Positions 1 through 52,146 of a stretch of 64,000 nt of DNA are shown here, piece after piece. The notes below the pieces were generated by a model. That model saw only the letters and a program-made list of their open reading frames with translations. It was not told the origin of the DNA and searched no databases. How positions within the stretch are numbered: the stretch's first letter is position 1; each line of letters opens with the position of its first letter. The translations under genes and the position numbers were made by a program. The stretch covers positions 4,290,702-4,354,701 of the forward strand of contig OZ241875.1 of the NCBI GenBank assembly GCA_965203325.1. Reading direction: 5' to 3'. This DNA comes from a bacterium. Lineage in GTDB: Bacteria > UBA8248.

Positions 1-1438
1 GTGCGAAATCGCGGTTGCGGTAGACGATGGGCCTGCCGTTCACGCCTTCGAGCGGGGGGCCGAGTTCCAGGTCTTTTTCGTTTCGGATGTGGCAACCCAG
101 GCAACCGACCTCTTCGAAGATGGATTTCCCTTGCTTGATCTGCGCGGCGTCATCGAGATTCGGGAACGCGGCCGGTTCCACCTTGCGCGGACCCTGCCGC
201 CAGACGTATGTGGCGATGTCCAGCGCTTCCTGGTCCGACAGGCTGAAATAGGGCATGCGGGTGCGCGGGTTGTAGTCTTTCGGCCTCTTGACCCAGGAGA
301 CGAGCCAGTCGGGCGCCACCTTCTCCTGGATTCTCGAGAGGTCCGGCCCCACCTTGCGCAGGCCTTCCGTGCCCGGAAGGGTGTGGCAGCCGTTACAGCC
401 CAACTCCCGGGTGAGGGAGATGCCGCGCGAGATTTGCGGCGCCTCGGGGATGTTGAATATCTCGGTGTGGCAGCTTCTGCACTTGGTTTGCGTTTCGCTG
501 CCGTGCAGAAGAGGGTCTTCCCAGAATTGCACGTGGCCGTGGGCCGTATTGAGGCTGGTGACGGCCGTTCCCTGACCGCCGTGGCAAAGCGTGCAACCGA
601 CCTTGTTGAATTCGTGCTTCGAGAGATAAAGACGCCTGTTGGGGTGCGTGCGGAAAGGTTGGGGCGCATCCTCGAAGCCCGCCCTGTTGATGCCCAGGTG
701 ACAGGTCTGGCACCGCTCCACCTTCATCACGGGTTCGTTGAAGTTGTTGCGCTCATATTCGCGCAGGACGAGCTGGCTGATCTCATAGGGACGGGCGGAG
801 ATGCCTTTCAGCCGCCGCTCCTGGGAGGAAATGTCGCCCGCCACTTTTCGCCGCGTCGCCTGGAGCGTTTTCAGCTCTTTTTCCTTGGCCTCAATCTTTG
901 CCTTTATCGCGTCTCTGTCGGCTTCGGCCTTCTCCGCGACGGGCGTTATCTCATCGAGGAGGGCCTTGGCCTCGTCGACTTCGGTTTGCTCGGCTTCTTT
1001 GTCATGTCCTTGCCGGATGGCTTCCTGAAGATAGAAGTAGGACTGATCGAAAAGCGCTTTTCTGAAGCCAAGCTCCTGCACTTTCTCGAAAGCGTCGAGT
1101 TCGCTCTTCGTGAGTTCTGCTTTCAGTTGCTTGAGTTCTTCGTCGCCCGCGAGTTTTTGTTCTTGCGCGGCGATTTTCTTGTCGAGTTCGGCGACCGCGG
1201 AGCCGGTGGTTTTCTTGAGTCTGTCGAGTTCTTTCTCTACCTGGGCTTTTTCATAGGCGTTGAACTGTTTCTGGTATTGTTTCCAGGGTCTGCGCGTGAA
1301 CGCCTCGTCCCAGACGGTCCAGAACGTCACCGCGACCATGAAGAGGCCCAGGATGAAAAACGGAATCGGACTGGTTTTTTCTTCCGGAGGTTTGAAGTCT
1401 CGGCCTTGCATCTTGAAAAAACGCTCCCCCACCGGCAT
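1..1438 (-). CDS. Membrane-anchored multiheme c-type cytochrome (3'-partial, continues beyond window start)
   Basis: Minus-strand frame opens after an in-frame TAG with ATG candidates at 1438 and 1411. N-terminal TM helix (PIPFFILGLFMVAVTFW), ~130-aa E/K/L-rich coiled-coil stalk, then at least 5 CxxCH heme motifs (CQTCH, CTLCH, CRSCH, CNGCH, CLGCH). The last two sit in class-I cytochrome c-like contexts (GPDLSRI...MPYFSLS...YVW; GPPLEGV). The frame runs off the window edge. Confidence 0.8.
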   Translation of the reverse strand, partial: MPVGERFFKMQGRDFKPPEEKTSPIPFFILGLFMVAVTFWTVWDEAFTRRPWKQYQKQFNAYEKAQVEKELDRLKKTTGSAVAELDKKIAAQEQKLAGDEELKQLKAELTKSELDAFEKVQELGFRKALFDQSYFYLQEAIRQGHDKEAEQTEVDEAKALLDEITPVAEKAEADRDAIKAKIEAKEKELKTLQATRRKVAGDISSQERRLKGISARPYEISQLVLREYERNNFNEPVMKVERCQTCHLGINRAGFEDAPQPFRTHPNRRLYLSKHEFNKVGCTLCHGGQGTAVTSLNTAHGHVQFWEDPLLHGSETQTKCRSCHTEIFNIPEAPQISRGISLTRELGCNGCHTLPGTEGLRKVGPDLSRIQEKVAPDWLVSWVKRPKDYNPRTRMPYFSLSDQEALDIATYVWRQGPRKVEPAAFPNLDDAAQIKQGKSIFEEVGCLGCHIRNEKDLELGPPLEGVNGRPIVYRNRDFA

Positions 1439-41060: not shown

Positions 41061-42497
41061 TTGTTCAAGAATGGGAGAAAGAACTTGTCTACGGCGCCGG
41101 AGAAGCCAAGGCTCGCGATTCACAGAAAATCTGAAAGGAAGTTGCAGTGGGAGACAATCTTCGTCATCGGGATGATTCATCTTCTCGCCCTCATGGCATT
41201 TGACCTGGATTATTTCAGCGTTTCCGGCCTCGTGGTGGGAATCGTGATGTATTTCGTCGCCGGAATGGTGGGCGTGACGATGTCCTACCACAGACTCCTG
41301 ACGCACAGGAGTTTCCAGACGTATAAGCCGGTGGAGTATTTCCTGACTTTCTGCGCTTGCCAGGCGCTTCAGAGCGGCCCAATCGAGTGGGTAGCGATGC
41401 ACCGCATTCACCACAAGGAATCGGACGAGGAGCCGGATCCGCATTCCCCGCTCGTGAATTTCCTGTGGGCGCACGCCGGGTGGCTTTTCGTCAGCCTGCC
41501 GGACGCGCACACCTACAATGAGTATTCTCGCTTCGCGAAGGATTTGCACCGCGACAAGTGGCAGCGCTTTTTCGACATGTTCTTTTTCCCCATCTATGTC
41601 TTGACCGCGGTGGCCATTTACTTCGCCGGGGAGGTGTACGGCGGCCTGGGCATGTCCTGGCTCGTCTGGGGCGTGTTCGTGCGCACGGTCGTTTTGTGGC
41701 ACTGCACCTGGGCAGTGAATTCGGTAACGCACACCTTCGGCTACCGCAATTACAATACGGATGAGGAGAGCACCAACAACTGGCTCGTCGCAATTTTCTC
41801 CTTCGGCGAGGGTTGGCACAACAACCATCATGCGGACCAGCGCTCGGCCGCTCACGGCCAGCGGTGGTTCGAGGTGGACATCACCTACCGGCTTATCAAG
41901 ATCATGGAACTCTTCGGGCTTGTCTGGGGGGTGAGAGAGCCGAGCCAGCGGGTCGTGGCGAAAAGACTCGACATCATGGTGGATGAAGAGGGCTTGCGCG
42001 CCTCCGAGGCGAGAAGGTTGGATACAGAGGACGCCCGCTCCGAAGTGCTCCACACGATGACCGACCCCACGATGCCGCTGGAAGTCCCCCGTATGCCCTC
42101 ACTGACCGAAGCGAGCGAGGCGGCGATGAAATCGGCCCGAAAGGCCATGGAATCGGTCAACACGGCGCTCGCGCACGCTTCTCACGCGCTTCGACACAAA
42201 GAGAAAGAGGATAATGCCGACCAAGCCGTTCGCCAGGTGCTGGAAAAGGGCAAGGATACGGCGATGGCGGCCATCGAGCAGGCAAAATACGCCGCGGCGG
42301 AAGCCGCGGAGTTCTCCGCACAGGCGAGCGCATTTCTGGCGGATGCGAAAGACAAGGCGACGGAATCCGCCCATCAGGCGGCTGAAAGAGCGAAGTCGCT
42401 CGCACAGGAAGCAAGCGATGCGGCTTCGAAAGCCGCCGATGAAATTGCAGTCGCGTTCAAGGGAATCGACAGGCCGGTCATCACCTCCGCGATATAA
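41061..42497 (+). CDS. Acyl-CoA/acyl-lipid delta-9 desaturase with ~170-aa C-terminal Ala/Glu/Lys-rich helical extension
   Basis: Histidine boxes HRLLTHRSF, HRIHHKESD, and NNHHADQRSAAHG. The C-terminal tail is low-complexity and amphipathic (AAIEQAKYAAAEAAEFSAQASAFLADAKDKATESAHQAAERAKSLAQEASDAASKAADE). TTG start as in the track; true start uncertain. Confidence 0.8.
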   Translation: MFKNGRKNLSTAPEKPRLAIHRKSERKLQWETIFVIGMIHLLALMAFDLDYFSVSGLVVGIVMYFVAGMVGVTMSYHRLLTHRSFQTYKPVEYFLTFCACQALQSGPIEWVAMHRIHHKESDEEPDPHSPLVNFLWAHAGWLFVSLPDAHTYNEYSRFAKDLHRDKWQRFFDMFFFPIYVLTAVAIYFAGEVYGGLGMSWLVWGVFVRTVVLWHCTWAVNSVTHTFGYRNYNTDEESTNNWLVAIFSFGEGWHNNHHADQRSAAHGQRWFEVDITYRLIKIMELFGLVWGVREPSQRVVAKRLDIMVDEEGLRASEARRLDTEDARSEVLHTMTDPTMPLEVPRMPSLTEASEAAMKSARKAMESVNTALAHASHALRHKEKEDNADQAVRQVLEKGKDTAMAAIEQAKYAAAEAAEFSAQASAFLADAKDKATESAHQAAERAKSLAQEASDAASKAADEIAVAFKGIDRPVITSAI

Positions 42498-43858: not shown

Positions 43859-43881
43859 GGGGGAATTGGGAGACATCCCGA

Positions 43882-43917
43882 CCGGCGGAGTTCGTGCGGC
43901 TCCGCCGGTTTTTCTTT
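43882..43917 (+). terminator. Rho-independent terminator after ilvC (CCGGCGGAG-loop-CTCCGCCGG + TTTTTCTTT)
   Basis: Perfect 9-bp GC-rich stem at 43882-43890 / 43900-43908, T-tract at 43909-43917, 24 nt after the stop. Confidence 0.7.
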
Positions 43918-44020
43918 GAAAAATGTTGAATTATTTAGGGGTTATGTACTCCCCGCTTGAAAGAAAAGAGAGAGCGTCGTATTCTTGAAAGACGCTGTTT
44001 TCGGCCGCCGAGAGGTAGTG

Positions 44021-44497
44021 ATGAGCGTTCAGAAAATAAAATTTCTCATCGCGGGCATGGTCATCGTGAGCGCTTTCGCCTATCTGGCCATTTCAGGGTT
44101 CCAGAGCGAGAACCTGGTGTATTTTCTGACCGTGGATGAGGTGTCCCAAAAGGCGCCGACTCTGGGCGGCCGGGGCATCAGGGTGCAGGGCAAGATCGTG
44201 CCCCGGACGCTTCAGAAAAATCCCGACGCCATGTTGCTCGCCTTCCATATTCAGGGCGAGAAGGGGACTTTGCCCGTCAGCTACAAGGGGGTTCCCCCCG
44301 ATTTGCTCGAAAACGGGTTTCCGGTCATCGCCGAGGGAAAGCTCAACGGCAAGGGGGTCTTGGTAGCGAAGAACCTGATGGTGGCATGTCCCTCGAAATT
44401 CGAGGAAATGAAAGAAGCGGGTGAGAGCATACCGACGGATCACGAAGCCTTGATGAAAGAAGCCGTGAAGCGCAGGCAAATCTCGGAAGCTAAGTAA
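44021..44497 (+). CDS. ccmE: Cytochrome c maturation heme chaperone CcmE, cysteine-type variant
   Basis: N-terminal membrane anchor, OB-fold core (LVYFLTVDEV...GIRVQGKIVP...FHIQG...LPVSYKGVPPDLLENGFPVIAEGKL). Heme-attachment region reads LMVACPSKFEE where canonical CcmE has LAKHDENY, so Cys replaces His. Confidence 0.85.
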   Translation: MSVQKIKFLIAGMVIVSAFAYLAISGFQSENLVYFLTVDEVSQKAPTLGGRGIRVQGKIVPRTLQKNPDAMLLAFHIQGEKGTLPVSYKGVPPDLLENGFPVIAEGKLNGKGVLVAKNLMVACPSKFEEMKEAGESIPTDHEALMKEAVKRRQISEAK

Positions 44498-44569
44498 CCG
44501 CTCGCCCGCAGTAATGGCCCTTGTCTCTCGTATTGTCTTAAAAATCCGCTCCATCCCGGGAGTTTTCAG

Positions 44570-46534
44570 TTGATCGCCATTCAGTTCGGACACTACAGCT
44601 TGCTGGCATCTCTCGTCCTGGCGGTGTTCGGAATAGGGGCCTGCATCCTCGGCGCGATAAAGCGCAGGGCCGACCTCATCGCGGCAGGTAGAAACGCCGC
44701 CGTCGGTGTTTTCTGGCTGGTGAGCGGCGCGAGCGCGTGTCTCGTCTATTTGCTCATGGTGCGCGACTACCGCGTGGAGTACGTGGCCGGGCACGTGAAC
44801 AACACGCTGAACGGGTTTTACCGCTTCAGCGCGTTCTGGGGGGGGCAGGAGGGGAGCCTGCTGATGTGGCTCCTGCTCTTGTGCGTGTATGCGTTCGTCG
44901 TCATCCTGCAAAACCGCGACAGAAATCTGGAGCTGATGCCCTACGTGACGGCCACGCTGATGGCCACGGCGCTGTTCTTTCTCGTAATTCTCAATTTCGT
45001 CACCCCGCCCTTCGATACGCTCCCCGCCCCGCCTGCGGACGGACGCGGCCTGAACCCGCTCCTTCAGGACTGGGGGATGGTGATCCACCCGCCCAACCTG
45101 TACCTGGGCTATGTGGGTTTCGCCGTTCCATTCGCCTTTTGCATCGGTGCTCTGGCGAGCGGAAAGCTCGACACCGACTGGATCACCTCGACGCGGCGCT
45201 GGACGCTGTTCGCATGGTTCTTCAACGGGGTCGGCATTCTGCTCGGCGGCGCATGGGCCTACAAGGAGCTGGGTTGGGGCGGATACTGGGCGTGGGATCC
45301 GGTGGAGAACGCGAGCCTCATGCCCTGGCTCGTGGGAACCGCTTTTCTTCACTCGGTGATGATCCAGGAAAAACGCGGGATGCTCAAGGTCTGGAACGTC
45401 TCGCTCATCATCATCACATACGCCCTCACGATATTCGGCACTTTCCTCACGAGAAGCGGCATCATCTCGAGCGTACACGCCTTTGCGAACTCATCGTTCG
45501 GCTGGGCGTTTCTGGTCTACTTGCTGGTGGCGCTCGTCATATCCTTTAGCCTGATGATCTGGCGTCTGCCCCAGCTTCAAAGCGAGCACGAGATGGAGAG
45601 CTTCTTCTCGCGCGAGGCGAGCTTTCTGCTCAACAACGTCGTGCTCGTCGGCATCACGTTCGCCGTCTTCTGGGGGACGATTTTCCCGGTCGTCTCGGAA
45701 GCCGTGAAAGGGGTGAAGGTCACCGTGGGGCCGCCGTTCTTCAATCAGGTGAACGTGCCGATAGGGCTTTTGCTCATTTTGCTTTGCGGCGCGGGGCCTC
45801 TTTTCGCTTGGCGGAGGACATCGCGAAAACAGATGAACAGGAGTTTCGTCTATCCCTCCGTGGTGGCGTTGGGCGCCCTGCTCGTCCTGGTGCTCTTCGG
45901 CGTTCACCACGTCTACGCGGCGCTCGCGTTCGGGCTCAGCGCGTTCGTGGTGGGGACGATCGTTTTGGAGTATTGGCGGGGAATTTCTTCGCGCGTGCGT
46001 CACCAGGGAGAGCGCATCGTCCAGGCGGCGTGGGAGCTCACCATGCGCAACAAGAGGCGCTTCGGTGGCTATATCGTCCACCTGGGGATGGCGATCTTGT
46101 TCGTGGGCGTGGCAGCGTCCTCGGCCTATCAGGAGGTAGGCGAGGTGCGCCTTCGCCTGGGCGAGAGTTTTGCGCTAAACGGCGTGCGGATGCGCTATGA
46201 AGGGATTCGCGAGAGCGCGACGCCGCAATACCGCTCCGCCTTCGCGCGCCTGGGGGTCTACCGGGCGGGATACCGCATCGGGGAGGTGGAACCGGAAAAA
46301 AGGCTCTATTTCACGCCGCCGCAACCGACGACGGAGCCCGGCATCCGCCGGGGCGCGCGTTCGGATATCTACGCCGTCTTCGCCGAGGCGGACCCGGACG
46401 GCACGGCCACGTTCAAGTTCATGGTCAACCCGCTGGTGAACTGGGTATGGGCGGGCGGTATCGTCTTTACGCTCGGCTCGGTCGTTTGCTTCTTGCCGGA
46501 GCGTTGGGGCAGGCGAAGAAAAAAGCAGGCTTAA
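44570..46534 (+). CDS. ccmF: Cytochrome c-type biogenesis heme lyase component CcmF
   Basis: 654 aa, ~13 TM, WGGxxGxxxMWxL WWD-domain motif (FWGGQEGSLLMWLLL). TTG start 44570 with GGGAG RBS. Confidence 0.9.
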   Translation: MIAIQFGHYSLLASLVLAVFGIGACILGAIKRRADLIAAGRNAAVGVFWLVSGASACLVYLLMVRDYRVEYVAGHVNNTLNGFYRFSAFWGGQEGSLLMWLLLLCVYAFVVILQNRDRNLELMPYVTATLMATALFFLVILNFVTPPFDTLPAPPADGRGLNPLLQDWGMVIHPPNLYLGYVGFAVPFAFCIGALASGKLDTDWITSTRRWTLFAWFFNGVGILLGGAWAYKELGWGGYWAWDPVENASLMPWLVGTAFLHSVMIQEKRGMLKVWNVSLIIITYALTIFGTFLTRSGIISSVHAFANSSFGWAFLVYLLVALVISFSLMIWRLPQLQSEHEMESFFSREASFLLNNVVLVGITFAVFWGTIFPVVSEAVKGVKVTVGPPFFNQVNVPIGLLLILLCGAGPLFAWRRTSRKQMNRSFVYPSVVALGALLVLVLFGVHHVYAALAFGLSAFVVGTIVLEYWRGISSRVRHQGERIVQAAWELTMRNKRRFGGYIVHLGMAILFVGVAASSAYQEVGEVRLRLGESFALNGVRMRYEGIRESATPQYRSAFARLGVYRAGYRIGEVEPEKRLYFTPPQPTTEPGIRRGARSDIYAVFAEADPDGTATFKFMVNPLVNWVWAGGIVFTLGSVVCFLPERWGRRRKKQA

Positions 46535-46537
46535 AGC

Positions 46538-47146
46538 ATGGAGATTCTCGGCGTCATCATCGCTTGCGGGGCGGTCGGCGCGGCTTTTTTCTACACCCTT
46601 TGGCCCATCATGCGCCCTCAGACGGCCCAGGGCGTCTTGCCGGATGAGGATAGCGCGCAGCCGCTTTCGAACCGCGAGTTGACACGGCTGTTGATGGAAC
46701 GCGAGCAGGCCTACAAGAACATCATGGATATCGAGTTCGACAAGGAAATGGGCAAGCTCTCTGATGAAGACTACGCCCAGATGATGGCGCCCGCCCGAGC
46801 ACAGGCGGTGGAGGTGCTGAGGCGCCTCGACGCCCGGGGGGTGAAGGAGGGGATGACGCCCCTGCAGATGAACGAGCGCGAGGCGGCGCAGGCGGCGGCC
46901 CGGCTCGAAACAAAACGCCCACCTTCCGAGAAAATCGCAGTCGAGAAACCCCCCTCGCTGGATGAGCGTCTGGAAGCGGAAATCCTGCGCTACAGGAAAA
47001 GTGCGAGCGAATCGCAAGATGAATCTGCCGATTCTTCATCGGATGAGCAAGAGAAAAGTATGAAACCCCGGTTTTGCGCTTCTTGCGGAAACGCCGTGGA
47101 TGAAGCGGATAACTTCTGCGCCGCCTGTGGGCGCCGGCTAACTTGA
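46538..47146 (+). CDS. Hypothetical membrane-anchored protein with C-terminal zinc-ribbon (CxxC...CxxC)
   Basis: N-terminal TM (ILGVIIACGAVGAAFFYTLW), charged helical middle, C-terminal FCASCGNAVDEADNFCAACGRRL. Sits inside the ccm cluster between ccmF and ccmA. Confidence 0.5.
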   Translation: MEILGVIIACGAVGAAFFYTLWPIMRPQTAQGVLPDEDSAQPLSNRELTRLLMEREQAYKNIMDIEFDKEMGKLSDEDYAQMMAPARAQAVEVLRRLDARGVKEGMTPLQMNEREAAQAAARLETKRPPSEKIAVEKPPSLDERLEAEILRYRKSASESQDESADSSSDEQEKSMKPRFCASCGNAVDEADNFCAACGRRLT

Positions 47147-48045
47147 AACGCATCGGGCCCGCTCGACCCCTTGTATTTCTATGCCTGTTTCTTGTCTGCT
47201 CCTCACCCGTCCTTTCATACGCAGGGCCGGCGAAGCTCCAGGCTGCGCCGCCCAAGGCGAAGGTTCAAACCTCCGGTCCCACGACGACGGACCTCTCCCG
47301 GCTCAGGCTCAAGCGCAACATCCTCACCATCCGGCTCGAAAAGGGTTTTTTCGAGTTCGTGGAGATGATGGATTTCGAGAACGAGGGCAGCGCCACCATC
47401 GTCTCGAAAGGCGGCGCTCCCACGCTGCGCTTCGTTCTGCCGAAGAGCAGCAACATCAGAAACCCCCGCGCGCGCTGGGGCGCAGCGCCCGCAGGACTCG
47501 ACCCCAAGTTCCTCACTACGGTGGAGGATGAGATCCGGACGACCGAGCCTTTCCCGCCGGGGCGGAAGTTCGTCGTCCTGCTCTATCGCCTGGAGGATGA
47601 GTTCGGCGGGATCAGGGTGGAGAAGCCCATCATTTACGACACGCCGAGTTTGGCCGTCCTGCCCGAGAAAGACCGCGTGCAGGCGCAGGCTCTTGGCCTT
47701 TCCGCACAGCCCGCCGTCAAGTTTCAGAACAGGGAATACAACCGTTTCGTGGGGACAGCCAGAGCGGGTACGCTGGTGCGCATCGACGTGCAGGCGCCCG
47801 ATTCGATGGGTGGCCTCGGGGTATTCTACGTCGTGGGAGGCGTCGTGGTCGTCTTGAGTCTGGGGCTTGGGCTTTACATCCGCAAAAGAAGGAACACGGC
47901 CTACTCCGCTCAGGTGGAGCGCGAGGAGATATTGCGCGCCATCGCTATACTCGATGACAGGCTCGCGACGGGGGAGATATCCGCCGATGAGCACGCCCGC
48001 GAACGCACCCCGCGCTTCGAGCGCCTGAAAGAACTCTCGGACTAA
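47143..48045 (+). CDS. Hypothetical exported protein with C-terminal TM and SHOCT-like tail
   Basis: Signal peptide (VFLCLFLVCSSPVLSYA), ~200-aa periplasmic domain, TM (GGLGVFYVVGGVVVVLSLGLGLYI), cytoplasmic tail LATGEISADEHARER. Embedded in the ccm cluster. Confidence 0.5.
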   Translation: MKRIGPARPLVFLCLFLVCSSPVLSYAGPAKLQAAPPKAKVQTSGPTTTDLSRLRLKRNILTIRLEKGFFEFVEMMDFENEGSATIVSKGGAPTLRFVLPKSSNIRNPRARWGAAPAGLDPKFLTTVEDEIRTTEPFPPGRKFVVLLYRLEDEFGGIRVEKPIIYDTPSLAVLPEKDRVQAQALGLSAQPAVKFQNREYNRFVGTARAGTLVRIDVQAPDSMGGLGVFYVVGGVVVVLSLGLGLYIRKRRNTAYSAQVEREEILRAIAILDDRLATGEISADEHARERTPRFERLKELSD

Positions 48046-48058
48046 GAGGGCGGATGCC

Positions 48059-48763
48059 ATGCTGGAGGCTTTTGGGGTATCCAGACGCTACGGATGGAGA
48101 TGGGCGCTCAGGAATTTGTCCATTGCCGTCTCCCCCGGCGAGGCGCTCGCTCTTCTCGGCAAGAACGGATCGGGCAAGACCACGCTTCTCAAATCTTTTG
48201 CAGGTCTGCTCAGGCCGACCGAAGGGGTGGTTCAACTAAGCGGCGAGCCGCTCTCCCGCGAGGCGAAGGGCAGAATCGGCCTGCTCTCGCACGAGCCCAT
48301 GCTTTATGCGGGTTTGACGATACGTGACAACCTCGGTTATTTCGCCAGGCTCTTTGGCATGGAAAGCGGAGATATACCGGTACGGGTGAGTCTTCTGGCG
48401 GAGATGCTCGACATACGGGAGCGTCTCGACGAACCCGTGCGCGTCTTGAGCCAGGGTCTCAGGCAGCGCGCAGCACTTGCGCGCGCGCTTATACACGACC
48501 CCGAGGTCGTATTGCTCGATGAGCCTTTCTCCGGCCTCGACCCGGATGCCGCCGAACGCCTGGAAAACGTCGTGCGCGCCCTTTGCGAGGGCCGAGAACG
48601 AATCGTGGTGTTCACGACGCACGACCTGTCAAAAGCCTTCGATATGGCGGGCAAAATCGCCGTTCTGGCCGGGGGCGGGCTTGTCTATGAGGGGAGTGCT
48701 GAAAATTCAAGCGAAGAAGAAGTGCTGGCCGCGTTCGATGAATCCCCTGGAGGCGCGGCATGA
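48059..48763 (+). CDS. ccmA: Heme exporter ABC ATPase CcmA
   Basis: Walker A GKNGSGKTT, signature SQGLRQRAA, Walker B VLLDEP; small (~234 aa) as typical for CcmA. RBS AGAGGG. Confidence 0.8.
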   Translation: MLEAFGVSRRYGWRWALRNLSIAVSPGEALALLGKNGSGKTTLLKSFAGLLRPTEGVVQLSGEPLSREAKGRIGLLSHEPMLYAGLTIRDNLGYFARLFGMESGDIPVRVSLLAEMLDIRERLDEPVRVLSQGLRQRAALARALIHDPEVVLLDEPFSGLDPDAAERLENVVRALCEGRERIVVFTTHDLSKAFDMAGKIAVLAGGGLVYEGSAENSSEEEVLAAFDESPGGAA

Positions 48764-49449
48764 GGCGCTTTTTCTCCGTGCTCTCAGCGGTGGTCGAAAA
48801 AGATTTGCGCCTCGAATGGCGGACGAAGGAAAGCCTCCTCGTCATGGTGGTTTTCGCACTGCTTGTGCTCACGCTGTTCAGCTTCGCCTTCGGCCCCGGA
48901 GGCGGAAGCGGGGAGAACGCCCGCGCCGTGCAGGCGGGCATCTTGTGGATATCGTTTTTATTCGCCTGTGTCATCGGGCTGTCCCGCACCATGGGCGTGG
49001 AGCGTGAGAGCGCGGGTTTTTCTGCCATGCACGCGAGTCCGGCGGACCCTTCCGCTTTGTATCTGGGCAAAGTGGTGTCCGCGGCCGTTTTGATGGGAAT
49101 CATGGAGTTGGTGGGCTTCGCCGTTTTGACGGTTCTCTATCAGGTGGATGTGTGGAAATCGGCCGGTGCGCTGGCGCTCATCGCCATCTCCGCCACGCTT
49201 GGAATCGCGGCCGCCGGTGCCCTGTTCGCCGCCATGAGCGCGCGTACGCGAACGCGAGAGGTCTTGCTGCCCGTATTGATGTTTCCCGTTCTTGTGCCTG
49301 TTCTGATCGCCGCCGTCAAGGCGACCGAAGCCCATCTCGGCGGCGGCGGATGGGCGGATTCGAAGGATTGGATTCGCTTGATGTTGGTGTATGATGTGAT
49401 ATTCTTGGTAGCCGCCTCTTTGCTCTTTGAATATATATTAGAGGAATAA
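48760..49449 (+). CDS. ccmB: Heme exporter permease CcmB
   Basis: 229 aa, 6 TM, N-terminus FSVLSAVVEKDLRLEWRTKESL is typical of CcmB. Overlaps the ccmA stop. Confidence 0.8.
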   Translation: MRRFFSVLSAVVEKDLRLEWRTKESLLVMVVFALLVLTLFSFAFGPGGGSGENARAVQAGILWISFLFACVIGLSRTMGVERESAGFSAMHASPADPSALYLGKVVSAAVLMGIMELVGFAVLTVLYQVDVWKSAGALALIAISATLGIAAAGALFAAMSARTRTREVLLPVLMFPVLVPVLIAAVKATEAHLGGGGWADSKDWIRLMLVYDVIFLVAASLLFEYILEE

Positions 49450-49527: not shown

Positions 49528-50223
49528 ATGGGCCATGACGAGCGGAGAGCGTTCGGGTGGTTGCCGGTTGTAGCCTTGTGCGTCCTTGCCTTCGCTATTT
49601 TTGCGGATTTCTTCATCGCGGGAACCGACAGGCTCCAGGGGCCGCCGCAGCGGATTTTCTACATACACGTGCCATCGGCCTGGGTGGCGTTTTTCGCCTT
49701 TTTCCTGGTGTTCATCTTCTCGATCAAATATCTGGCGAAAAGGAATCCGGACGACGACATCCGAGCGCACGCCTGCGCGGAGGCGGGAGTCGTTTTCTGC
49801 ACGCTGGTGCTCATCACCGGGCCCATCTGGGCGCGTCCGGTCTGGGGCGTATGGTGGACGTGGGACGCGCGGCTCACCACCACGCTCATCCTGTGGATGA
49901 TTTACGTGGGCTATCTCATGCTGCGCGCCTACATGACGGAACCCGGGCAAAGGGCGCGATTCGCCGCCGTGATGGGGATCATCGGCTTCCTGAACGTACC
50001 CATCGTGCATATGTCGGTGGAATGGTGGCGTACGCTCCATCCCAAACCCGTAGTGATGCGCTCGGGCGGGTTAAGGGAGCTGCCCGATTCCATGCACGTG
50101 GCCTTATGGAGTTCCCTGCTGGCCTTTATGCTCCTGTTCGCCTGTTTCGCCAGAAAGCGCGCGCAAATCGAGCGTCTGAGCGCGCGGGTGGAAGAGGCGC
50201 GCGCCGCGCGGGAGGGAGGGTGA
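49528..50223 (+). CDS. ccmC: Heme exporter / heme-handling protein CcmC
   Basis: WWD domain WGVWWTWDARLTT, conserved His residues, 231 aa. Confidence 0.85.
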   Translation: MGHDERRAFGWLPVVALCVLAFAIFADFFIAGTDRLQGPPQRIFYIHVPSAWVAFFAFFLVFIFSIKYLAKRNPDDDIRAHACAEAGVVFCTLVLITGPIWARPVWGVWWTWDARLTTTLILWMIYVGYLMLRAYMTEPGQRARFAAVMGIIGFLNVPIVHMSVEWWRTLHPKPVVMRSGGLRELPDSMHVALWSSLLAFMLLFACFARKRAQIERLSARVEEARAAREGG

Positions 50224-50354
50224 TGGGCTACGTGGCGGCGGCGTACATCGTCGTTCTGGGTGGATTTGCGCTTTATTGGTGGACTCTCAAGGCGCGGATG
50301 GATATTTTGGTGGAGGAGGAGAAAAAACTGAACCCCAGGAGAGATCCTCCATGA
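50223..50354 (+). CDS. ccmD: CcmD-like small membrane protein (43 aa)
   Basis: MGYVAAAYIVVLGGFALYWWTLKARMDILVEEEKKL: single TM + charged tail. Start overlaps the ccmC stop (TGATG) and its stop overlaps the next gene's ATG. Not in the supplied ORF list because it is too short. Confidence 0.5.
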   Translation: MGYVAAAYIVVLGGFALYWWTLKARMDILVEEEKKLNPRRDPP

Positions 50355-50839
50355 TGCGTTTTGGGCTCGCCTTGTGCCTGCTGGTCGCCTTGTGTCTCTA
50401 TTCAGTAGCTCAGGCCGCGTCGCCGGGAGCCAAGACCACATTCTCAGAAGTGGCGGGCGCCCTCATGAGTCCGGTGTGTCCCGGGAAACTGCTGCACGAT
50501 TGCCCCAGCAGCGAGGGCGCTCAACTCCGCGAACTCGTGCGCCGCAAGATATTCGCCGGGGAGTCGAAAGAGCAGATTGTCCGGTATTTCGTCGAGGTAT
50601 ACGGCAGAGACGTTTTGCCCAAGCCTCCGGCGGAGGGCTTTTATCTCACCGCCTGGCTTCTTCCTTTCGGGGGGGTGTTGGCGGGTTTCGGCGTGGTCTT
50701 CGTTCTGGTGAGGTCGTGGACGAGGCGCCCCGAAGATGCCGGACATGGTGAAGGGCAACGTGAAGTCTCGCAAAAGGCCGCCTCGGACGACCCGCTGGAA
50801 AATCGCTTACAGCGCGAGCTTGGTGATTTCGAGGGTTGA
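50351..50839 (+). CDS. ccmH: CcmH/NrfF-family protein with atypical C-x6-C motif
   Basis: Signal peptide, then VCPGKLLHDC (canonical is LRCxxC). Followed by the conserved CcmH helix region (QLRELVRRKIFAGESKEQIVRYFVEVYGRDVL) and a C-terminal TM. Confidence 0.6.
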   Translation: MMRFGLALCLLVALCLYSVAQAASPGAKTTFSEVAGALMSPVCPGKLLHDCPSSEGAQLRELVRRKIFAGESKEQIVRYFVEVYGRDVLPKPPAEGFYLTAWLLPFGGVLAGFGVVFVLVRSWTRRPEDAGHGEGQREVSQKAASDDPLENRLQRELGDFEG

Positions 50840-50870
50840 GCCGCCATACTCCGCAAGTCGAGAGTTTTCA

Positions 50871-51554
50871 ATGAACTATGATCCCAAGAGTGAACTTGCC
50901 AGAAATCTCGATGGCTTCTCCCCGCACCGCCGGAGCATCAAGTGGCGGTTGATTGGGATGGTCATCAGCCTGATCCTGGTTGTCTGGATGATCGTGTATT
51001 TCGGCAATCAGGCAGAGCAGCCGGCGCAGGAGGCGGAGAGAAAGCAGGCGCAGCTGGCGCCGAAGGAGAGTGAAGGGGATGACGCCGGCTTGTACCGCGA
51101 CATGATTTTTCTCAAACAGGTCAAGCGCACCGATGCCCCGGGTGTATTGCTCAAGACCCTGGACGGGCAGAATCACTCTCTCGCGCAGCATGCGGGAAAG
51201 CTCGTCCTGGTGAATTTCTGGGCGACGTGGTGCCAGCCGTGCATCCGGGAAATGCCCTCGATGGAGCGGCTTTATGCGAAATACAAGCCGAGTGGTCTCG
51301 AGATCGTGGCGATATCGCTGGATCAGGGGAATGAAGATGATGTGCGCGAGTTCGTCGCGAAGCTGAAACTGACTTTCCCCATCGTCCTCGACCCTGAGCA
51401 CAAGGCGAAGGCGCTCTACAAGGTGCGGGGGCTGCCGACGACGTATCTCCTGGACAGGCAAGGCCAGGTAGCCGGCTACGGCGTGGGACCCCGCGAATGG
51501 GACAGCGAGGCCGCCTTCGCTCTTGTAGGTCATTTGCTTGATGAGAAAAGCTGA
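50871..51554 (+). CDS. ccmG: Thiol:disulfide oxidoreductase CcmG/DsbE/TlpA-like (thioredoxin fold)
   Basis: N-terminal TM anchor, WATWCQPC active site, TlpA/ResA-like fold. ATG 50871 is in frame with the longer track ORF 50736. Confidence 0.75.
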   Translation: MNYDPKSELARNLDGFSPHRRSIKWRLIGMVISLILVVWMIVYFGNQAEQPAQEAERKQAQLAPKESEGDDAGLYRDMIFLKQVKRTDAPGVLLKTLDGQNHSLAQHAGKLVLVNFWATWCQPCIREMPSMERLYAKYKPSGLEIVAISLDQGNEDDVREFVAKLKLTFPIVLDPEHKAKALYKVRGLPTTYLLDRQGQVAGYGVGPREWDSEAAFALVGHLLDEKS

Positions 51555-52146
51555 AGGTATGGAAGCGTCAAAAAGCTCGAGTCCCGACCAGCGAAAGGCC
51601 AAGCGGCTGGCCCTTTCGTTCATCCTGGCCCCGGTGCTGCTGACGCTGCTCTGGGCGGTGGGCGAGCGCCTGACGACAGAACGTGCCGAAGAAGCGCCCG
51701 TGACCAGTCTGGAGATCGGTGCTCAGGTTCCCCCTTTTGAATACCCGCTTCTGGGCGGTGGGAGCGCCTCTCTTGTAAGCCGGAAGAACAAGGTAGTGCT
51801 CATCAACGTGTGGGCCACGTGGTGCGTTCCGTGCCTGGATGAGATGCCGGATTTGCAGCGCCTCTACGCCCGGATGAAAAAAGACGGCGCGCCATTCGAG
51901 ATACTGGCGGTGAGCATCGACGCCCTGGGAGCGGACGCCGTCCGGAGATTCGTCGATCGCTTCGGCCTCACGTTCCCGATTCTGCTCGACCCGCGCGGGA
52001 GCATCAAGAAGCTCTACCGCACGACCGGCGTGCCGGAGACGTTCATCGTGGATCGCCAGGGCCGTCTCCTGCAGAAGATCATCGGCGCCCGCAAATGGGA
52101 TGCGCCTGCGATTGTCCAATACCTAAAACAAGCCGCCGGCTCCTAG
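51541..52146 (+). CDS. Second TlpA/DsbE-family thioredoxin-like protein
   Basis: TM anchor, WATWCVPC, same fold as the preceding gene; a paralog. Start overlaps the ccmG stop. Confidence 0.75.
   Translation: MRKAEGMEASKSSSPDQRKAKRLALSFILAPVLLTLLWAVGERLTTERAEEAPVTSLEIGAQVPPFEYPLLGGGSASLVSRKNKVVLINVWATWCVPCLDEMPDLQRLYARMKKDGAPFEILAVSIDALGADAVRRFVDRFGLTFPILLDPRGSIKKLYRTTGVPETFIVDRQGRLLQKIIGARKWDAPAIVQYLKQAAGS

Follow-up and report, generated by a model that had tools for sequence, protein, structure and literature searches.

A Cys-type CcmE with phenylalanine at the axial tyrosine position is conserved throughout a Nitrospinota lineage

The ccmE gene found in the 64,000-nucleotide stretch of DNA analysed here (the window) encodes a Cys-type haem chaperone in which Cys123 occupies the place of the haem-binding histidine and Phe127 that of the axial tyrosine, and this phenylalanine is retained in every orthologue of the lineage. 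We consider it probable (about 0.78) that the protein is a functional CcmE of the Nitrospinota System I, in which Cys123 would form a thioether with haem, Phe127 would only pack on the haem and ligation by tyrosine would be dispensable. The observations behind this reading are the identity of the gene, the fold of its product, the register of the motif, purifying selection, a complete gene cluster and the recurrence of Phe in other phyla. From these we infer that Cys123 binds haem covalently, what Phe does and how the iron is ligated. The Phe variant is already on record, though unstudied, and what is new here is its fixation across a whole lineage.

Results

Identity, fold and motif register of CcmE

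The gene and the three codons on which the argument turns are the following.

44021..44497, + strand: ccmE, Cys-type haem chaperone of 158 aa (PF03100, PDB alignments, AF2/Foldseek, 38 orthologues)
44387-44389, + strand: TGT codon of Cys123, in the column where E. coli CcmE has its haem-binding His130
44399-44401, + strand: TTC codon of Phe127, in the column where E. coli CcmE has its axial ligand Tyr134
44441..44443, + strand: CAC codon of His141, conserved in the tail and the sole candidate for a substitute iron ligand, a putative role

The reading frame starts with ATG downstream of a Shine-Dalgarno-like site (GAGAGG), and its coordinates and the peptide VACPSKFEE are exactly those given in a preliminary description of the locus, which had recognised the OB-fold core as that of CcmE. 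This identification is borne out by the PF03100 profile, which matches residues 33-129 over 98 of its 99 positions with 82.4 bits (E=3e-23; curated cut-off 24.6 bits), and by the best PDB matches that Foldseek returned for an AF2 model of the protein, all of them CcmE (8ce8_E, 1lm0, 1sr3 and 1j6q, and also the Cys-type D. vulgaris 2kct). Every NCBIfam CcmE equivalog model (NF009727 and others) scores below its cut-off, the best with 68.4 bits against 126, so the window protein is a divergent CcmE, more so than the mostly His-type proteobacterial proteins behind these curated models.

The AF2 model, built on 18 orthologues with a mean pLDDT of 77.5, displays the membrane anchor, OB-fold and flexible tail typical of the family: a TM helix (residues 3-28), a beta-barrel (34-121) and a tail modelled at low confidence (pLDDT about 60). 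The motif C123-P-S-K-F127 lies between barrel and tail, directly after the last beta-strand (L119-M-V-A-C123-P-S-K-F127-E-E-M). In a gapless phmmer alignment to the Shewanella protein (1j6q), the His and the Tyr of KHDENY pair with C123 and F127, respectively. The Cys/His column agrees in the phmmer alignments to the PDB sequences of E. coli (8ce8_E, 1sr3) and D. vulgaris (2kct, '...TKCP'), and when 146 representative relatives were aligned to the protein with MAFFT, 130 of them had Tyr in the F127 column.

The exchange of the haem-binding His for Cys, proposed earlier from the sequence, is therefore upheld by both the phmmer alignments to PDB sequences and the MAFFT column. The same description had suggested that the axial Tyr might be missing or shifted, and the first of these is the case: the residue is Phe in every orthologue, no in-register Tyr occurs among the 38 orthologues, the translation contains no Tyr beyond residue 89, and the 31-residue tail that follows F127 (EEMKEAGESIPTDHEALMKEAVKRRQISEAK) has none to which the ligand could have moved. 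Both positions of the canonical HxxxY motif are thus changed, Cys123 replacing His and Phe127 replacing Tyr. Of the features of System I*, the protein has the Cys in place of the haem-binding His within CPSK and carries Phe127 instead of the Tyr at +4; judged by its sequence, it is a member of this Cys-type branch that departs from it at the Tyr. An antisense ORF of 461 aa (44093..45478) running over ccmE and ccmF was treated as a by-product of the 60% GC sequence and set aside, because the genes on the + strand have strong family matches.

The ccm gene cluster

The elements upstream of ccmE and the genes that follow it are listed below.

43880-43910, + strand: terminator-like hairpin after ilvC, with a 13-bp GC-rich stem and a T run (consensus scan only)
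43957-43985, + strand: promoter-like site, sigma-70-like TTGAAA-17-TATTCT, 36 nt before the ccmE start (consensus scan only)
44570..46534, + strand: ccmF, haem lyase subunit of 654 aa (PF01578, PF16327, TIGR00353)
46538..47146, + strand: cluster ORF of 202 aa (weak zinc-ribbon Pfam matches only; conserved in Nitrospinota loci)
47143..48045, + strand: cluster ORF of 300 aa (conserved, 34-98% identity in the loci)
48059..48763, + strand: ccmA, ABC ATPase (PF00005)
48760..49449, + strand: ccmB, ABC permease (PF03379)
49528..50223, + strand: ccmC, haem-presenting WWD protein (PF01578, TIGR01191)
50220..50354, + strand: ccmD-like gene of 44 aa with a single TM segment (position and size as for the gene called in locus L001; conserved in the loci)
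50351..50839, + strand: ccmH-like gene of 162 aa, with MSPVC43PGKLLHDC51 replacing LRCxxC (PF03918, 76 bits)
50736..52146, + strand: two tandem TlpA/ResA/CcmG-like thioredoxins, WCQPC and WCVPC (Redoxin/AhpC-TSA Pfam and ResA/TlpA/DsbE NCBIfam matches, below curated cut-offs)

The window ccmE is the sole ccmE of its cluster and probably heads the ccm transcription unit, as the hairpin after ilvC and the promoter-like site that follows it suggest. Its linkage is that of the CcmE family, with ccmF as the next gene downstream and ccmABCD no more than 6 kb away. CcmF receives haem from holo-CcmE, and the translated ccmF keeps the WWD motif together with four conserved His contexts (HPPNLY, FLHSV, SVHAF and VHLG). 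CcmC likewise carries the WWD motif and both periplasmic His ligands (YIHVP, WGVWWTWDARL, WWRTLHP). The 44-aa ccmD-like ORF gave no HMM match. The thioredoxin pair comes directly after ccmH, and the ORF of the first overlaps the ccmH end; the coordinates given for the pair are the maximal ORF span, and the true start of the first gene is probably near 50787, judging from the gene lengths in L001. The whole order (ccmE, ccmF, two ORFs, ccmABCD, ccmH, two thioredoxins) is syntenic in loci L001 and L002 and in about 30 others, with all the genes conserved.

Both ORFs between ccmF and ccmA are present in those Nitrospinota loci that reach that far. The 202-aa product combines an N-terminal TM helix, a cytoplasmic FDKEMGKLSDEDY segment (GKLSDEDY) and a C-terminal zinc ribbon, and the 300-aa product, for which no Pfam or NCBIfam match was obtained, consists of a signal/TM segment, a periplasmic domain, a TM helix and a short cytoplasmic tail. 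At this place in its ccm cluster, locus L044 has a zinc-ribbon homologue and a 390-aa protein. The two ORFs may be unrecognised accessory factors of the Cys-type System I, possibly CcmI-like.

The kinship with the archaeal and Desulfovibrio-type Cys variant that had been put forward earlier holds for the CPSK core, which is the same (PMC3601427, PMC9084895), and fails for the gene content, as this cluster is not minimal and includes ccmD, a CcmH-like gene and two thioredoxins. Absence of CcmH, which formed part of the original 2006 definition of System I*, and absence of CcmG, as in D. desulfuricans, do not apply to it, since a CcmH-like protein and two thioredoxin-like proteins are encoded. 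Stevens et al. (2011; PMC3601427) put the share of System I* bacteria that possess CcmH at about one third and do not regard the lack of it as a hallmark of the group.

ResB/CcsA genes of System II were not found within the window. Two further genes of the window are described here.

1..1438, - strand: multihaem c-type cytochrome that has at least 5 CxxCH motifs and, at its N-terminus, a coiled-coil-like stretch; the gene runs off the window edge
41061..42497, + strand: fatty-acid desaturase-like ORF, 478 aa as listed (its L001 orthologue is called at 449 aa)

The multihaem cytochrome c is probably matured by the ccm system. The desaturase-like ORF carries a C-terminal extension of about 150 residues, rich in Ala, Glu and Lys, with a low-complexity or coiled-coil look.

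Phe127 is fixed across the lineage

An orthologue scan with one genome per species yielded 40 loci and 38 distinct orthologues. The 40 loci all come from MAGs whose labels read Nitrospinota, Nitrospinaceae, Nitrospinae, Candidatus Tectomicrobia or just 'bacterium', and the closest matches are 95% (OZ241996.1) and 94% identical (a Nitrospinota MAG, VXPH01000189.1); an exact match to the window protein was not on record. A Nitrospinota bacterium is therefore the most probable source of the window. The string NLMVACPSKF is kept in all 38 distinct orthologues, at overall identities of 49-95%, and C123, F127, E129, G134 and P138 are invariant among them. In an index of 5.8 billion proteins, the 66 full-motif homologues, reaching down to 49% identity, all carry CPS[KR]F, with a single CPSRF.

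The nucleotide versions of the 38 orthologues show how this constancy is maintained. Phe127 is encoded by TTC in 33 and by TTT in 5, never by TAC or TAT; Cys123, equally invariant as a residue, is encoded by TGC in 25 and TGT in 13. Synonymous changes have accumulated at each degenerate codon of NLMVACPSKF with zero amino-acid change. A single base change converts a Phe codon into a Tyr codon, and the turnover of synonymous sites with no change of residue, when Tyr is one step away, points to purifying selection for Phe. A sequencing error or a strain-specific mutation was rejected as the origin of the motif, given its constancy in the 66 homologues and in 38 orthologues with synonymous turnover.

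The nearest relative outside the clade, P0068, is 43% identical, has CPSKY and has a cluster member labelled Nitrospinota. The Tyr to Phe change is accordingly placed at the base of the clade, this sister having retained the Tyr. We considered whether P0068 could be a second paralogue residing in the same genomes; its position directly upstream of a ccmF 59% identical to that of the window fits an orthologue from a sister lineage, which is the more probable reading, although its contigs are short. One Nitrospinota MAG (CAMYJL01) has two distinct CPSKF ccmE genes on separate contigs (L031 and L033), 65% and 62% identical to the window protein, which represent either paralogues or a mixed bin.

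CxxxF is a recurrent state of Cys-type CcmE

A HMMER search of 1.84 billion representatives of 50%-identity clusters gave 2087 matches, and 146 of the best 150 of these were aligned with the query. All 147 sequences in this nearest set are Cys-type: 130 are CxxxY, 15 CxxxF (query included) and 2 CxxxM. When a neighbour-joining tree was computed with the motif itself left out, the F-type proteins split into three or more groups, each with Y-type proteins as its closest relatives, namely the Nitrospinota clade, a larger clade with Chloroflexota-named members and a cluster with a Limnochordia member. By this tree, Phe was acquired on three or more separate occasions, in Nitrospinota, Chloroflexota and Limnochordia, and the alignment indicates that Phe, and occasionally Met, is a recurrent minority state at the 'Tyr' position of Cys-type CcmE.

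Such variants have been recorded before. Stevens et al. (2011) described System I* proteins as mostly CPSKY, with F in 4 of 36 System I* bacterial genomes (PMC3601427), and Shevket et al. (2018) counted Phe in about 3% of CcmE sequences. The literature that we searched contained no link to Nitrospinota and no characterised or biochemically studied CxxxF CcmE; searches combining Y134F with CcmE, and Nitrospina with CcmE, returned nothing.

An unusual cysteine pattern in the CcmH-like protein

The LRCxxC redox motif of CcmH does not occur in the 162-aa CcmH-like protein, which has S40-P-V-C43 followed by C51, that is, SxxC-x7-C. In gapless alignments to CcmH of E. coli (2kw0) and P. aeruginosa (2hl7), L-R-C-P-K-C corresponds to L-M-S-P-V-C43, so the first motif Cys has become Ser (S40), and C51, eight residues past C43, falls on the Ser of a conserved 'A-D-S'. 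All three residues are invariant in 30 Nitrospinota loci, and SxxC-x7-C is found in 100 of 103 motif-bearing CcmH homologues, at identities as low as about 42%; the remotest matches revert to CPVC. C43 and C51 may form a relocated redox disulfide.

We examined whether this motif is coupled to the CxxxF state of CcmE and rejected the idea, because L044, a cluster from another CxxxF lineage, has a CcmH with canonical LQCPVC; the Phe of CcmE and the SxxC-x7-C of CcmH are consequently not linked in mechanism. No description of an SxxC-x7-C CcmH was found in the literature searched, and it may be the more original observation of this region.

Discussion

Proposed mechanism

If the window protein works as a CcmE, its N-terminal helix would anchor it in the membrane and its OB-fold would dock on haem-loaded CcmC, where Cys123, just past the last beta-strand, would add to a haem vinyl group and form a thioether. 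ATP hydrolysis by CcmAB would then free holo-CcmE, which would pass the haem on to CcmF/CcmH, where it would be joined to CxxCH apocytochromes. Because Phe cannot ligate iron, the haem would have to be held without any ligation by residue 127; in the released form the covalent bond and hydrophobic packing of Phe127 on the porphyrin would suffice, and the iron would be either five-coordinate or bound by water or by a ligand from elsewhere. The intact syntenic cluster, the conserved motifs of CcmC and CcmF and the multihaem cytochrome c encoded in the window argue that the maturation system is a working one.

Characterised Cys-type proteins provide precedents for the first part of this scheme. 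The CcmE of D. desulfuricans expressed in E. coli binds haem covalently and is functional (PMC3601427), and in M. acetivorans the Cys of CcmE was shown genetically to be required (PMC9084895). Non-covalent haem binding through its Cys has been reported for the D. vulgaris protein (PMC3884852), so covalent attachment is not guaranteed for the window CcmE either. With respect to the second part, Tyr134 ligates the iron of released holo-CcmE in E. coli, and models based on cryo-EM end with a switch from P-His2 of CcmC to Tyr134 (PMC9616876). With Phe127 at that position such a release switch is impossible here, which counts against the explanation we favour. According to the literature, the Tyr is dispensable in E. 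coli CcmE. The strictly conserved tail (G134, P138, H141) suggests, from its pattern of conservation, something more than a plain loss of the ligand.

Comparison with known systems

The closest characterised counterparts are the System I* proteins of D. desulfuricans and D. vulgaris (CPSKY, 2KCT), which share with the window CcmE the attachment Cys, the C-P-S-K core, the OB-fold and a bacterial origin, as well as a ccmD in the cluster. Identity between D. vulgaris 2kct and the window protein is about 29% in the structure alignment. The window CcmE differs from the Desulfovibrio proteins in its Phe for Tyr at +4 and in a longer, conserved tail with His141, and its cluster adds a CcmH-like gene and two CcmG/TlpA-like thioredoxins that are missing in D. 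desulfuricans. With the archaeal CcmE (Methanosarcina acetivorans, C120xxxY) it has the Cys-type site for haem attachment in common; the archaeal systems retain the Tyr and have no CcmD, CcmH or CcmI, whereas the window has CcmD and CcmH, and Phe.

The canonical CcmE of E. coli and Shewanella (H130-D-E-N-Y134; 1SR3, 1J6Q, 8CE8) supplies the best PDB matches in both sequence and structure and shares the TM anchor, the OB-fold, the flexible tail and the motif register. It is set apart by the two exchanges, His to Cys and Tyr to Phe, and for the window protein a thioether would be expected in place of the His-N-vinyl bond. Finally, the CxxxF proteins of Chloroflexota and Limnochordia (P0106, P0154, P0216) and those of the four genomes of Stevens et al. 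share CPS[KR]F. The Chloroflexota and Limnochordia lineages are independent, at most 54% identical to each other and less so to the window protein, and their tails are short and have no conserved His, unlike those of the window clade. L044 is the one CxxxF cluster that was inspected; its CcmE (P0074) groups with the Chloroflexota-named proteins, and its CcmH is of the canonical CxxC type.

Alternative explanations

The axial ligand could have moved from position 127 into the tail, to His141, leaving Phe127 only a packing role. Tyr is the other classic haem ligand beside His, and position 141, which is His in 37 of the 38 orthologues, is occupied by Tyr in L003/P0065, the most divergent of them, whose haem would then be Tyr-ligated. 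The residues near it vary freely apart from the invariant G134 and P138, giving the pattern G134-x3-P138-x2-4-H141, and the nearest CxxxY sister, P0068, does not have His141. However, other CxxxF lineages end in tails of 2-12 residues with no His at all (P0106 '...CPSKFESA', P0108 '...CPSRFES'), from which it follows that Phe needs no substitute ligand. Nor is the tail His specific to F-type proteins, since HMMER aligns a tail His of the Shewanella HxxxY CcmE with His141, and among relatives with long tails it is no commoner in the F-type (3/8) than in the Y-type (16/61). On these counts, and because several F-type proteins end 2-3 residues past the Phe, a general rule by which a tail His compensates for Phe is not supported, and the idea is retained for this lineage alone. 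The covariation of Phe and His141 within the clade amounts to a single evolutionary event, and the tail lies in the part of the model with a pLDDT of about 60. We therefore regard a ligand at His141 as unlikely in the light of these sequence patterns.

A more far-reaching proposal takes the features of the region together as a third flavour of System I in Nitrospinota and Tectomicrobia, in which CcmE would attach haem through Cys and ligate its iron by His141 (Tyr in the most divergent member), CcmH would use a C-x7-C disulfide, and the two extra membrane proteins would help to handle haem or apocytochrome. We judge this decidedly unlikely; were it true, the rules 'HxxxY/CxxxY plus CxxC' for recognising and modelling System I would be incomplete.

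The protein might instead be a degenerate or repurposed CcmE, serving as a haem store, a buffer or a non-covalent binder, with another system maturing cytochrome c. Two reports lend this some substance, that of the D. vulgaris Cys-type CcmE as a non-covalent haem binder (PMC3884852) and that of the H130C variant of E. coli CcmE, which binds haem yet cannot pass it on (PMC9084895). Against them stand the place of ccmE at the head of an intact, conserved cluster whose ccmF, ccmC and ccmH appear to keep functional motifs, the strong purifying selection on CPSKF, the lack of System II ResB/CcsA genes in the window, and a lineage that includes Nitrospinaceae MAGs, with a multihaem cytochrome c encoded in the window; repurposing is accordingly very improbable. 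That a ligand Tyr is present and merely displaced by an indel has practically no chance of being correct, being refuted by the sequence itself, in which no Tyr follows residue 89 and C-P-S-K-F/Y aligns gaplessly with 1j6q and with 130 CPSKY relatives.

Implications

The finding adds detail to known biology, the variant itself having been noted earlier in reviews. It would be of some small practical gain to allow C-x3-[YFM] as the CcmE motif in annotation rules and pattern searches. CxxxF proteins are natural variants with which the role of the residue at the Tyr134 position can be probed. A whole lineage with encoded cytochrome c, Nitrospinaceae MAGs included, keeps Phe at this position, and at least two other phyla gained it independently; as far as sequences can tell, this natural variation speaks against a mechanistic need for the Tyr ligand, at any rate in Cys-type systems.
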